A DNA stretch of 13,823 nucleotides from a virus (lineage: Duplodnaviria > Heunggongvirae > Uroviricota > Caudoviricetes), in IMG/VR virus record IMGVR_UViG_2579778797_000009. The stretch is one strand, 5' to 3'. This document shows positions 2,612 to 6,322 of this stretch, one piece after another (position 1 is the stretch's first letter; each line of letters opens with the position of its first letter). The notes beneath the pieces are model-generated. The model did no database searches and had not been told where the DNA came from. It was given only the letters and a program-made list of their open reading frames with translations. The position numbers were made by a program, and so were the translations under genes.

Positions 2612-2665
2612 ATGTCGCAAAATCAAGAAATTAGTAAGAAAGAACAATACAACCTGAACAAGTAA
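2612..2665 (+). pseudogene. ttcC: 5' fragment of ttcA (tRNA 2-thiocytidine synthetase) left at the prophage attachment junction (ttcC-like remnant)
   Basis: ATG at 2612 encodes MSQNQEISKKEQYNLNK then TAA. KKEQYNLNK matches the recalled N-terminus of TtcA, and sequence after 2665 has no ttcA character. Rac-type prophages are known to integrate at ttcA and leave a short duplicate fragment next to uspF. Confidence 0.5.
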
Positions 2666-2765
2666 GGGCAAAAATCACAACCATCTGACACATAAAGATT
2701 TTATTTATTTTTCAAAACGTTAAACAATATCAGCGACTACAATAACCTACGATAACCCACTCTTT

Positions 2766-2813
2766 TTTTGCCCCATTTTTGCCCCTTTTGCAGCGTTTTG
2801 CCCCATTTTTGCC
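2766..2813. repeat. Phased direct repeats of a T-tract + GCCCC motif at the prophage end
   Basis: GCCCC(A) starts at 2770, 2781 and 2800, with a degenerate gccac at 2811, each preceded by TTTT(T/G). Spacing of 11, 19 and 11 bp is roughly helical. Function unknown. Confidence 0.4.
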
Positions 2814-2938
2814 ACCACAAAAAATCCTAAACCACACAAATCTAAAACCTACAAATTGCCCCCTTGGATACTTTTCAATAGAATCTGTTCCGGCTGGAAA
2901 TCATTCAATACTCGCACTATCGAAAGTTATCCAGCCAA

Positions 2939-2985: not shown

Positions 2986-3168
2986 TTACATTGTGTCTGG
3001 TTCTTCCGGCCACTCAATATCAGGTGCAGTTGATGTATCAACACGGTTCAACAACACCCGATACTTTTTCCATGCGGCCAGTAACGCTTTCTCTTCCTCC
3101 GTTGCGATTTCCAGCTCAACAACAGTCTGAACGTACCGGGAACAGCCTCCTTCAGAGCTTGAAGGATA
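2986..3168 (-). pseudogene. tfa: Remnant of the tail fibre assembly gene tfa (C-terminal about 45 codons recognisable)
   Basis: The 60 sense codons directly after the stf stop, in the same frame, translate [60 protein letters not shown]. The ...[23 protein letters not shown]... block matches the recalled conserved C-terminus of lambdoid Tfa (e.g. TfaR). No start codon or N-terminal part is present. Confidence 0.6.
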
Positions 3169-5658
3169 TCAATGTTCGCTTCCTGTTAACTGCCGGACAA
3201 GTGCAACCAGTTCGCTTACCTGATTTTCCAGAGTGCTGATCCGGGTGTCTGCTGTTGCCAGATTTTCACGTAGCGTTGTGTTTTCCTCTTCCAGCGCGGT
3301 AACGCGATCATCTGTTTCACGGGCGACCTGAACAAGTAAACCCGTCACGGCGGCGTAGTCAACATTAAGATAGCGCGTTTCTTCGCGTAGCTCGTTGCCG
3401 TCAACGGTCGGACCTTGTAACGCTTCACCGTAATGAGTAAACGATCCCACAGCTTCCGGTAGCGCCTCCATTACCTCCTGAGCGATAACGCCAGCGTAAG
3501 GTAGTCCGTTTTCCTTAAGGGTATAAGTGTACCCGTTCATTTTGCGGATGGCTTCAGTTGCATCACCTATAACCTGAATGTTGTCCTTCAGATCACGATC
3601 AGATGATTGGTTTATCGTTTCGCATGTAATGTGACCAGACGCTTTAAGATTTTTTACATCAAGTCTGTCGTTTGCAAAATTATATGAAATTGCGGTGCTG
3701 GTGCTTCCGGCATCATCATAATCGCTTTTATGAATAAACCAGTTTCCACCATTAGCAATGAGAGTATAAGTAGGCGTGTTAGCCGGGCGATCTGTTTCAT
3801 TAAATCTTATTGCTGGGTTAGCGCTCCTTATTTGTAAAGGTTTTTCAACCGTGGATTTCAGTATCGCACTATCTACAATTAAATTACCTTCTGAGTTAAT
3901 GTTTAGATATTTTGAAGCACCAGTTGAACCATCGTATGTAAACCTTATTGTTAATTGACCTGGCTCATTTGATAAAGTCTCAACATACATATCAGCACCA
4001 AGACGCACAGTGCTGTCAGTTGCTAACAGTCTTGTATGGAGAATACCACTAGATGTGTATGTATTGGTCGAATCACTATATCTATCAAGAAATAGACTGT
4101 TAAGTTGAGGGCTATTGCTCCTGCCTAATCCAAGATTCGTTCTGGCACCATCAATAGTTGCCGCACCAGTACCTCCGGCCGCGATCGAAAGCGGAATCCA
4201 TTCGCTATTCTCTGCATCGTAATAACCCCATGTTCCTGAATCGTAGATACTAAAAAATTTGCTTGCATTTTGACAATATACGCGTGTATTACCTGTTAGT
4301 TGAGTAAGCCTGTCCACTTCATCTTTTCTTGCGTGACGCGTCCACTGCGGGCCTATTGTCGGATTCCAGCGATAAGTATAAAGCGAGCGCGTAGCCCATC
4401 CCTGAAATACACCTGTATACGCTGGTGTTCCATCTACCTGACTAATAAACCCCGTAAGACTGCTTTCACCGGATGCAATCGATGGAAAGCCTTTTGCATT
4501 ACTCATAATGCGCATAAATCCGATATACCCTGATGGGTTGCCGGAAATATCAGGACAATCACGCGGGGCTGAGCCAAGACCGATATTATCGCCAACAATT
4601 ACTTGCGCCTGGTTGCGATAATTAAGTGCGTCCGCTGCAGATTTCGCCGCGTTTGTTTCACTGGATTTAGCATTAGTTTCGCTGGCTTTAGCGTTTGTTT
4701 CGCTGCTCTTTGCTGCTGCCTCGCTATTTTTCGCGTTGGTTTCTGATTTTTTGGCTGCTGTCGCGGAGTTTGCCGATGCAGTTTGTGAGGCCGCTGCCGC
4801 CTGTGCGCTGTTATCCGCATTCGTCTCAGACGTTTTTGCGGCCTTCGCGGAATTTCCTGCCGCCGTTGCCGAGGAAGCTGCACTACTGGCACTTGATGAT
4901 GCGTTCGTTTCTGATGATTTCGCTGCCTCTTTTGAGGCCGCCGCATCCCGGGCTGAGGTGGCAGCTTCTGACGCTTTCGTGGTCGCGGTGGATGCAGAAG
5001 TGGCTGCAGATTTTTGTGACGCTGCAGCATTCGTTTCTGACGTTTTCGCCGCACCGGCACTGGTAGCCGCCGCGCTTTTTGAGGACTCTGCAGCGGCAGC
5101 ACTTTTTGATGCTTCAGTAGCCTTTGTTGATGCCGTTCCTGCGCTGGAAGACGCTGACTGAGCCGACGTCGCGGCCTGCCCGGCTGATGTGCTGGCTGCA
5201 CGTGCTGAGCCTGCAGCATCAGTCGCATGGGTTGCCGCCTCACGGGCTGATGTGCCGGCATCGCTGGCTGACTTCTTCGCGGCTGCCGTGTTCTGTTCCA
5301 CTGCGGACGCGTTACGCGCCACCTCTTCCACCATCAGTTCAAAGCGGCGCAGTGCCTCCGGACGGGCATCATCCTCCGTCATGGCACCGAGAAAATCATT
5401 CAGTGTGCCCGGCTTTGAGTCCTCATATACGGTGATAATCCCGGCGTGTGACGGCGGGAATCCCTCCACCAACAGACTGACGCTGTACTGACCATACTCG
5501 ACGTCCATTGTGTAACGCCCGGCTTCATCCGGGTTTTCTGAGGCCACTGTGTTCACCACCACCGTGGTGCTGTTGCGCCTGGCCTTTAGCTGAATGGTGC
5601 AGTTTTGTATCGGCTTACCTGCGCCATCTTTCAGTACACCTGAAATCCGTACTGCCAT
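3169..5658 (-). CDS. stf: Side tail fibre protein, mosaic: lambda Stf-like N-terminus, Ala/Ser/Thr-rich repeat shaft, distinct distal domain, C-terminal intramolecular chaperone (peptidase S74-like) domain; 829 aa
   Basis: ATG at 5658 with a GGGGGGA Shine-Dalgarno. N-terminus MAVRISGVLKDGAGKPIQNCTIQLKARRNSTTVVVNTV... resembles recalled lambda Stf; repeated K(S/T)SETNA motifs across about residues 105-330; C-terminal 144 aa begin SDRDLKDNIQVIGDATEAIRKMNGYTYTLKENG..., the signature of self-cleaving fibre chaperone domains. Stop TGA at 3169-3171. Confidence 0.85.
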   Translation of the reverse strand: MAVRISGVLKDGAGKPIQNCTIQLKARRNSTTVVVNTVASENPDEAGRYTMDVEYGQYSVSLLVEGFPPSHAGIITVYEDSKPGTLNDFLGAMTEDDARPEALRRFELMVEEVARNASAVEQNTAAAKKSASDAGTSAREAATHATDAAGSARAASTSAGQAATSAQSASSSAGTASTKATEASKSAAAAESSKSAAATSAGAAKTSETNAAASQKSAATSASTATTKASEAATSARDAAASKEAAKSSETNASSSASSAASSATAAGNSAKAAKTSETNADNSAQAAAASQTASANSATAAKKSETNAKNSEAAAKSSETNAKASETNAKSSETNAAKSAADALNYRNQAQVIVGDNIGLGSAPRDCPDISGNPSGYIGFMRIMSNAKGFPSIASGESSLTGFISQVDGTPAYTGVFQGWATRSLYTYRWNPTIGPQWTRHARKDEVDRLTQLTGNTRVYCQNASKFFSIYDSGTWGYYDAENSEWIPLSIAAGGTGAATIDGARTNLGLGRSNSPQLNSLFLDRYSDSTNTYTSSGILHTRLLATDSTVRLGADMYVETLSNEPGQLTIRFTYDGSTGASKYLNINSEGNLIVDSAILKSTVEKPLQIRSANPAIRFNETDRPANTPTYTLIANGGNWFIHKSDYDDAGSTSTAISYNFANDRLDVKNLKASGHITCETINQSSDRDLKDNIQVIGDATEAIRKMNGYTYTLKENGLPYAGVIAQEVMEALPEAVGSFTHYGEALQGPTVDGNELREETRYLNVDYAAVTGLLVQVARETDDRVTALEEENTTLRENLATADTRISTLENQVSELVALVRQLTGSEH

Positions 5659-5669
5659 ATTCCCCCCAC

Positions 5670-5695
5670 AAAAAAGCCCGCCTGAACCGGCGGGC
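5670..5695 (-). terminator. Intrinsic terminator between lom and stf (minus strand)
   Basis: Stem gcccgcc (5676-5682) / ggcgggc (5689-5695), 6-nt loop, with an A-run at 5670-5675 on the plus strand (a U-run after the hairpin on the minus-strand transcript). Confidence 0.7.
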
Positions 5696-5722
5696 TGTCA
5701 TAACACTGTGTTACCTGGCTAA

Positions 5723-6322
5723 TCAGAATTTATAACCGACACCAACGATGAAACTGTTGGTACGCCAGTCACCGCTGCCGGAGCCTTCATAAGCGACGTC
5801 AACGGCCACGGATTCGGTCGGGTTAAACTGCACGCCAGCTCCCCACGCCAGAGACGTGTTGCTGTGGCGACCGTCATCACTTCCGGTCAGCACATCGTGC
5901 GTTTTCCCCTTGTTGTCAGTTACGCGGATATAATCCCCGGAGAAAGTCGACACACGGCTGTAAGCCATACCCGCCATCGCATACGCGCTGAACCATTCAT
6001 TCACGCGCACAGACGGCCCCGCCATCACGCTGAACCAGCGATTACGCACGGAATCCTCATGCCAGCGGGTATCGCTGTAATGCGTTTTTTGCTCATCTTC
6101 AGCGTTGGCATAACTGAATGACGTAATCAGCCCCAGCGTGTCCGTAAACTCATAACGGTATTTCACGTTAATCCCGTTCAGATTATCGCTGCCGGGAGCG
6201 TTCGTACGGGCATGAAGATACCCTGCGCTCAGTGTGGCCTGCTGCTCAGACGCCCATGCAGGCGCACCGGATACGGCCAGACAGATGGCTGCGGACAAAA
6301 TGGCTGCACAAACTTTACGCAT
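5723..6322 (-). CDS. lom: Lom outer membrane beta-barrel protein (Ail/Lom/PagC family), prophage moron; 199 aa
   Basis: ATG at 6322 with a GAGG Shine-Dalgarno. Signal peptide MRKVCAAILSAAICLAVSGAPAWA; motifs INVKYRYE and the C-terminal VAYEGSGSGDWRTNSFIVGVGYKF match recalled lambda Lom. Position between J and stf as in lambda. Confidence 0.9.
   Translation of the reverse strand: MRKVCAAILSAAICLAVSGAPAWASEQQATLSAGYLHARTNAPGSDNLNGINVKYRYEFTDTLGLITSFSYANAEDEQKTHYSDTRWHEDSVRNRWFSVMAGPSVRVNEWFSAYAMAGMAYSRVSTFSGDYIRVTDNKGKTHDVLTGSDDGRHSNTSLAWGAGVQFNPTESVAVDVAYEGSGSGDWRTNSFIVGVGYKF

Follow-up and report, generated by a model that had tools for sequence, protein, structure and literature searches.

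The phased T-tract/GCCCC direct repeats that lie in the phage-derived arm of a Rac-type attR junction, within the 13,823-nucleotide stretch of Caudoviricetes DNA analysed here (the window), are very probably the P-arm arm-type sites of the Rac-type (IntR) tyrosine integrase, as predicted from sequence comparison. An earlier note had read them as binding sites for an integrase or an accessory factor, and the recurrence of the motif in the partner arm, in PHB10, in phi367 and at 72 of 80 loci of the IntR clade supports that reading. Arm-type sites are an ordinary kind of element, previously undescribed for Rac or for the IntR/Arm-DNA-bind_2 clade in the searchable literature; our full-text searches returned no description of such sites for Rac or wrbA. 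Rac is among the best-known cryptic prophages of E. coli K-12, and the arm motif provides a testable model of its excision and integration.

A phased repeat array beside a Rac-type attR core

BLAST searches against complete E. coli genomes and GenBank phages identify the left part of the window as ompN (728-1861) and uspF (1930-2436). Beyond uspF comes the right-hand end of a Rac-type lambdoid prophage, with tail genes oriented leftwards. The side tail fibre gene (3169-5658) is succeeded by lom-like and J-like open reading frames. No tRNA gene was found in the window, and neither an integrase gene nor attL lies within it. The junction and the array comprise the following features.

2612-2665, plus strand: ttcC, the displaced bacterial 5' end of ttcA, cut short by the prophage insertion; ATG...TAA, translating to MSQNQEISKKEQYNLNK and a stop
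2636-2661, no strand assigned: Rac-type attR core of 26 bp, AAGAAAGAACAATACAACCTGAACAA; matched exactly once in the window, within the displaced ttcA 5' end
2765-2775, plus strand: predicted arm-type unit 1, TTTTTGCCCCA; TTGCCCC core invariant in eight distinct Rac-like P arms
2776-2785, plus strand: predicted arm-type unit 2, TTTTTGCCCC; kept in seven of the eight distinct Rac-like P arms
2786-2795, plus strand: degenerate unit 3, TTTTGCAGCG; T-tract phase kept, GC part variable among relatives
2796-2805, plus strand: predicted arm-type unit 4, TTTTGCCCCA; kept in seven of the eight distinct Rac-like P arms
2806-2816, plus strand: predicted arm-type unit 5, TTTTTGCCACC, with one mismatch; a perfect TTTTTGCCCC in the relative L200
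2856-2865, plus strand: outlying copy TTGCCCCCTT, at most a weak candidate; altered in Rac-SA53 and missing from the K-12 arm

The core sequence is annotated as the att site in phage Rac-SA53 and is the core given for Rac by Liu et al. 2015 (PMC4632033), and the K-12 homologue of the surrounding stretch is annotated as the pseudogene ttcC. Because this single Rac att core ends at 2661, the DNA from about 2662 rightwards is phage-derived and forms the P arm of attR; the host side consists of the ttcA 5' end and uspF, and the array falls outside the ttcA target. TGCCCC is absent from the core, and the array motif is thus distinct from core-type sequence. Together, core and arm point to a Rac-type cognate integrase for the prophage in the window.

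Units of the form TTTT(T)GCCCC(A) occupy 2765-2816, three of them exact, one with a single mismatch and one degenerate. The exact TTTTGCCCC starts at 2766, 2777 and 2796 and the one-mismatch TTTTGCCAC at 2807, which reproduces the three clear copies, the degenerate copy and the start-to-start spacing of 11, 19 and 11 bp described in the earlier note. Once the degenerate TTTTGCAGCG in the 19-bp gap is counted there are five units, with their G at 2770, 2781, 2790, 2800 and 2811 and G-to-G steps of 11, 9, 10 and 11 bp (mean 10.25 bp); the stretch 2765-2813 is scored by Tandem Repeats Finder as an 11-bp unit in 4.8 copies. The first unit starts 104 bp from the end of the core, on the phage side, in agreement with the distance of about 100 bp inside the prophage end that had been proposed. 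At up to one mismatch the motif occurs six times in the window, against 5.08 expected from shuffled sequence, and four of these six matches fall inside 50 bp, a span that held at most two in any of 300 first-order Markov simulations. The clustering is not due to chance.

The motif in the partner arm and in other Rac-like prophages

The two places to which the earlier note had pointed for a check, the partner att arm and homologous prophage ends, both carry the motif. The same array is present, unannotated, in the Rac prophage of K-12 MG1655, and the P arm was found in 1,523 of 5,426 complete E. coli genomes (about 28%). On the other side of the prophage, the P' arm of Rac carries the pair TTGCAAAGTTTGCCCCCAATTTGCCCCATT, and the attL of Rac-SA53 has TTTGCCCCCAATTTGCCCCATT, read on the int-sense strand, in the 75-bp interval from the intR stop codon to the core. 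Both arms can be seen together in an IMG/VR contig (L128) that holds an intact Rac-like attP, where the int stop is followed by TTTGCCCCCAATTTGCCCC and the phage-borne ttcA 5' end with its core, and then by GGGCAAAAAT, an AT-rich stretch and a five-unit array like that of the window. In this contig the units of the P' pair and of the P array share one orientation, and 198 bp separate the two clusters.

In E. coli ECMA0423 (L244) and Shigella flexneri SFBU1023 (L245), P-arm sequence (GTAAGGGCAAAAATCACAAC...) comes directly after int, the P' pair and the core, which makes an attP-like junction inside the chromosome; the array of this P arm is lost after unit 2. The integrase match at these two loci is spread over 1,574 bp, which suggests an insertion in int.

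Conservation across the IntR clade

Sequence divergence among the relatives separates the motif from its surroundings. PHB10, whose integrase is 69% identical to IntR and which has an intact attP with a ttcA-type core, carries the P' pair TTTTTGCCCCTA-TTATGCCCCTA immediately 3' of the int stop and a P array of clear GCCCC-type units with G at 3946, 3957, 3976 and 3988. The steps of 11, 19 and 12 bp place these units about 107-154 bp from the core, and, as in the window, the 19-bp middle gap holds a degenerate unit at most; the spacers have diverged from their window counterparts, and the motif and its layout are kept. The integrase of phi367, a wrbA-type phage of the Stx family, is 44% identical to IntR, and no ttcA-type core was found in the sequence after its int gene. 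The P' pair of this phage, GTGCCCCAGACGTGCCCCAAAG, lies within the 3' coding end of int, and about 200 bp further on TTTTGCCCCAAATATGCCCCAAA, a gap and TTTGCCCCAATAGCGCCCCAAA follow with steps of 11, 20 and 11 bp, which repeats the pair-gap-pair arrangement of the window. Klebsiella phage 6 likewise has a pair at the 3' end of int. Where integrase identity drops to 29-31%, other repeats occupy the same place: a Ralstonia phage has CTGGCAAAA and Pseudomonas phage MD8 has TGGTACA.

For a broader view, five clade integrases were aligned and the alignment was used to search a single genome for each species. The 80 loci obtained have identities of 42-99% and belong to Escherichia, Enterobacter, Citrobacter, Klebsiella, Pantoea, Erwinia, Yersinia, Serratia, Hafnia, Photobacterium and other genera. 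At 72 of the 80 loci the pair G[CT]CCC-N6-G[CT]CCC is found no more than about 25 bp from where the integrase match ends, on the int strand. Near variants occur at 7 further loci, and about 330 kb of sequence, both strands included, holds only 2 other occurrences. From 62 distinct sequences we derived the consensus TTTGCCCCnnnnATGCCCC, in which the CCC of each unit is 100% conserved. A ttcA-like core follows the pair at only 27 of 73 pair-bearing loci, and the motif thus tracks the integrase rather than the insertion site. Furthermore, the pair is non-coding in the ttcA-type members and sits inside the int open reading frame in other members of the clade; because they are 11 bp apart, the two copies there fall in different reading frames, so that the constraint acts on the DNA.

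Among the genome loci L238-L292, where the int 3' ends were compared, clade members that do not insert at ttcA have the P' pair embedded in the last int codons (for example ...DFAPSMPH), and the C-terminal tail of these proteins appears to be dictated by the arm sites. Two sources were set aside in this comparison. The Stx2_14744 locus (L209), with TGTCCCAAA variants, was rejected as an example of a P arm, its annotation assigning the DNA to a different resident prophage, PPompW; and a scan of IMG/VR with the IntR protein gave 80 near-identical loci, most of them ending at the int stop and unfit for comparing arms.

Probable integrase rather than excisionase sites

The protein that would read these sites has a plausible architecture for doing so. 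IntR and the PHB10 integrase, both taken from relatives and encoded outside the window, match Pfam PF12167 (Arm-DNA-bind_2) at residues 5-69 (E = 2e-26 and 8e-26), followed by the Phage_integrase catalytic domain, and this predicted domain content makes them lambda-type heterobivalent integrases. When the IntR sequence was searched against the PDB, only relatives of the catalytic domain matched, and no structure related to the N-terminal domain.

Excisionase sites, too, usually take the form of tandem direct repeats in the attR P arm, with about one helical turn from copy to copy, and classical Xis sites are restricted to one arm. The array has this form, and XisR (YdaQ) could in principle coat its units in head-to-tail fashion, bending the P arm in the manner of lambda Xis at X1-X1.5-X2. 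We regard such an origin as very improbable. The motif pair is not confined to one arm, being present in the P' arm beside int as well, and published binding data speak against it. XisR does shift a fragment containing the attR region (PMC4632033), but in that single published experiment, carried out with His-tagged protein, the shift was obtained with the 294-bp AttR fragment and not with the 291-bp AttM fragment (Liu et al. 2015, PMC4632033). When mapped on K-12 (L004), the published primers delimit AttR to 5790-6083 and AttM to 5669-5959, and the whole array, at about 5805-5858, is contained in both. The AttM result counts moderately against XisR sites. We note that the co-inheritance described above cannot by itself separate Int from Xis sites, as xis travels together with int; it is the presence of the motif in both arms, together with the negative XisR gel shift on a fragment that includes the array, that narrows the choice to the integrase.

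The same pair of fragments places the sequence needed for the XisR shift in L004 5960-6083 (about 2513-2661 in the window). This interval consists of the core and about 124 bp of host-side DNA, not of the P arm, which is odd for an excisionase.

Intrinsic curvature and regulatory alternatives

The array is also the most strongly curved place in the window by prediction. Five tracts of T4-T7 recur with a mean period of 10.25 bp, and a wedge-model trajectory, calculated with Bolshoy-Trifonov parameters, has its maximum for the whole 13.8-kb window at 2798. The predicted value there is 33 degrees per 30 bp, compared with 9.3 for the window mean and 24.4 for the 99th percentile. The intrinsic curvature put forward in the earlier note is thus predicted by this model, with T-tracts of at least 4 bp in helical phase coinciding with the predicted bend, the pattern of a curved A-tract element. 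Taken to its extreme, this would make the array purely structural, its phased T-tracts and GC spacers imposing a fixed bend that folds the arm, with GCCCC read by no protein; we hold this to be very improbable. GCCCC is invariant across the clade (100% at three positions) and the flanking T/A content varies; the P' pair of many relatives lies in coding sequence with hardly any T-tract, as in GTGCCCCAGACGTGCCCCAAAG, and little curvature is possible from two units. Phased T-tracts curve DNA unaided, so part of the conservation could be structural, but because GCCCC is invariant and the T content of its flanks is variable, curvature probably adds to protein binding and does not replace it.

Very unlikely, in our judgement, is that the repeat is regulatory or incidental, whether as a promoter UP-like element, the operator of a phage regulator, an H-NS nucleation site or a simple sequence generated by slippage. 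The region does not code for protein and is situated downstream of the promoter of the displaced ttcA, and H-NS is reported to influence Rac excision (Liu et al., PMC4632033), but the position of the motif is fixed relative to int and the att core across genera and integration sites, which would not be expected of an incidental repeat, and the array shows no overlap with any promoter-like site, terminator-like site or Rfam family. Explanations through a promoter, a terminator or a known RNA were rejected for want of any overlapping match. A coding explanation was rejected as well, no feature being annotated over the array in K-12 Rac or in most of the related E. coli genomes listed.

A model for Rac recombination

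If the units are arm-type sites of the integrase, then by analogy with lambda Int, IntR would act as a two-handed recombinase, its N-terminal arm-binding domain gripping TGCCCC-type sites in the phage arms and its C-terminal domains gripping and cutting the core inside ttcA. In the P arm the sites would be grouped as neighbouring pairs, units 1-2 and units 4-5, at a distance of about 104-155 bp from the core, and the other arm would offer a matching tandem pair just 3' of the int gene. A bend between core and array, which may be provided by the IHF-like site at 2710-2722 and by the phased T-tracts themselves, would let arm-bound integrase reach the core, and the recombination complex could in this way be assembled both for excision (attL x attR) and for integration (attP x attB). 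We infer IntR binding, the assignment of units to integration or excision, and the role of IHF from the lambda analogy.

This model would have practical consequences. The consensus TTTGCCCCnnnnATGCCCC at the 3' end of int would mark the attL side of IntR-clade prophages, including the wrbA-type Stx phages, independently of the insertion site, and the motif amounts to a predicted DNA specificity for the Pfam Arm-DNA-bind_2 domain.

Comparison with known systems

The arm sites of lambda and HK022 (P1, P2 and P'1-P'3) are likewise sites of about 10 bp in the phage arms that are distinct from the core sites. Lambda and Rac have in common a tandem P' cluster beside int, distal P-arm sites 100-150 bp out and an IHF-type site in between, and both lambda Int and IntR possess a small N-terminal arm-binding domain. 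The lambda arm-type consensus is roughly C/AAGTCACTAT, from which the Rac motif TTTGCCCC differs. Furthermore, the P arm of Rac carries two adjacent pairs in one 50-bp array, whereas that of lambda has two separated single sites, and the N-terminal domain of IntR belongs to another Pfam family (Arm-DNA-bind_2) than the lambda-type domain (Arm-DNA-bind_1); the Rac sites are predicted from sequence.

Adjacent arm-site pairs that flank the core on both sides, as in Rac, are also a feature of mycobacteriophage L5, whose attP, studied by Pena, Hatfull and colleagues, reportedly has the arm pairs P1/P2 and P4/P5 about one helical turn apart on both core sides. Motif, host and integrase lineage are unrelated in the two systems, and the L5 sites have been footprinted, whereas those of Rac are predicted. 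Closer to Rac in its setting is KplE1 (CPS-53), likewise a cryptic prophage of K-12, whose IntS/TorI module is said, from the work of Panis and colleagues in 2007, to have att arms with repeated Int arm-type and excisionase sites. Its integrase family, motif and arm layout differ from those of Rac, and the KplE1 module was characterized experimentally, whereas the Rac arms are described by sequence.

A match in sequence comes from Enterococcus. In phiEf11, the direct repeats AAAGGGGCAAA and AAAGGGGCA occur in both predicted attP arms and were proposed to bind the integrase (PMC12540744). The repeat is essentially the same sequence as the Rac motif (reverse complement of TTTGCCCCTTT), and the phiEf11 att site, like the Rac arm sites, is only predicted. 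A passage of the same paper cites Lee & Buranen 1989 for a 'GGGC' integrase consensus.

A wider pattern beyond Rac

An exact scan of IMG/VR for TTTGCCCC-N(2-4)-TTTGCCCC returned the 11-bp register in 75 of the 90 matches listed (80 loci). Of these 75 listed matches, 28 lie at most 400 bp from a tyrosine integrase gene and 18 more at most 400 bp from the end of the locus. We compared the motif with its reverse, a control of the same composition, by the distribution of spacings and the distance to integrase genes among the matches listed; the control gave spacings of 16, 43 and 34, and 4 of its 93 listed matches were near an integrase gene. Many of the listed pairs are in contigs of 31-42% GC, directly 3' of the stop of Firmicutes-type integrases that begin MWIEELPNGKYKF, and some listed loci have a second TTTGCCCC pair about 215 bp downstream. 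Overall, pairs among the listed loci L088-L167 (for example L093, L104, L113, L129 and L164) occur in viral contigs of 26-68% GC, and a paper on the Lactococcus prophage phiKW2 lists aaaggggcaaaaaaggggcata as attR, so that att sites in both the phiEf11 and the phiKW2 paper carry this sequence.

The N termini of the MWIEELPNGKYKF-type integrases examined gave no match to a Pfam arm domain, and a profile-profile comparison of Arm-DNA-bind_2 N-terminal domains with the Firmicutes-type N termini found no relationship (probability 2.6%), although the alignments were shallow and homology at the level of the fold is possible. As TTTGCCCC pairs thus also occur beside integrases with no detectable Arm-DNA-bind_2 homology, an account with one domain and one motif is insufficient. 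It is conceivable, although we hold it only tentatively, that TGCCCC-type tandem pairs at an 11-bp register are a widely shared arm-site code far beyond Rac, one that may include the P' arm of nearly every Enterobacterales integrase of the IntR clade together with the Firmicutes-type integrases, to judge from these sequence matches. If so, either the way in which the arm-binding fold reads DNA is deeply conserved, or a curved T-tract/GCCCC element has been adopted convergently by unrelated integrases, and the pair would provide a sequence rule for finding attP arms and prophage ends directly.

Neighbouring elements of the P arm and prophage end

Three further elements lie between the core and the array.

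2666-2675, minus strand: inverted motif copy ATTTTTGCCC (plus-strand GGGCAAAAAT); exact 10-nt inverted repeat with 2775-2784, 5 bp from the end of the core
2710-2722, plus strand: IHF-like site TTTCAAAACGTTA, one mismatch to WATCAANNNNTTR, from a consensus scan; candidate bend site between core and array
2737-2756, plus strand: tandem CTACAATAAC / CTACGATAAC, a second repeat directly before the array; candidate accessory-factor site

The inverted copy is a possible additional arm-type site, an assignment that we regard as uncertain. Its GGGCAAAAA part is invariant in the eight distinct Rac-like P arms, the last base differing in L200, and PHB10 has at this position only a partial copy, in direct orientation. 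An arm-type site as near to the core as this would be unusual. At the position aligned to the IHF-like site PHB10 has a perfect IHF consensus, AATCAATTAGTTA, and it partly retains the CTAC elements of the 2737-2756 tandem, to which a second protein, be it XisR or some other factor, possibly binds.

The displaced ttcA 5' end, which forms the host side of attR, contains a perfect IHF consensus (AATCAAGAAATTA) at 2621-2633, and a version with one mismatch (AATCAACAAATTA) in the phage-borne ttcA 5' end of attP and attL is a candidate H'-like site.

Beyond the array, a strong hairpin at 2937-2973 on the plus strand (-19 kcal/mol, z = -3.9) is followed by UUUUUCUUUUU and a U-run that extends to 2983. 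The hairpin is directed away from the displaced ttcA promoter, its sequence is recognisable in K-12 Rac, and it was missed by a simple terminator scan; the whole element (2937-2983) looks like a terminator that shields the prophage end from read-through. Further in, a match to the Rfam family IS009 on the minus strand (3029-3229) covers the full model length below threshold (81.6 bits against a gathering cutoff of 117, E = 1e-18) and is located in a remnant of the tail-fibre-assembly region. Between the array and the hairpin, nested inverted repeats at 2865-2936 (TGGATACTTTTCAATAG / CTATCGAAAGTTATCCA and GGCTGGAAATCATTCAATA / TATCGAAAGTTATCCAGCC) lie beside a truncated tail-fibre-assembly gene and are possibly what remains of the boundary of an invertible segment of the Pin type. 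A recombinase fragment adjoins the equivalent stretch in WEM25, a near-identical strain, and a similar stretch occurs in prophage PPompW (L209).
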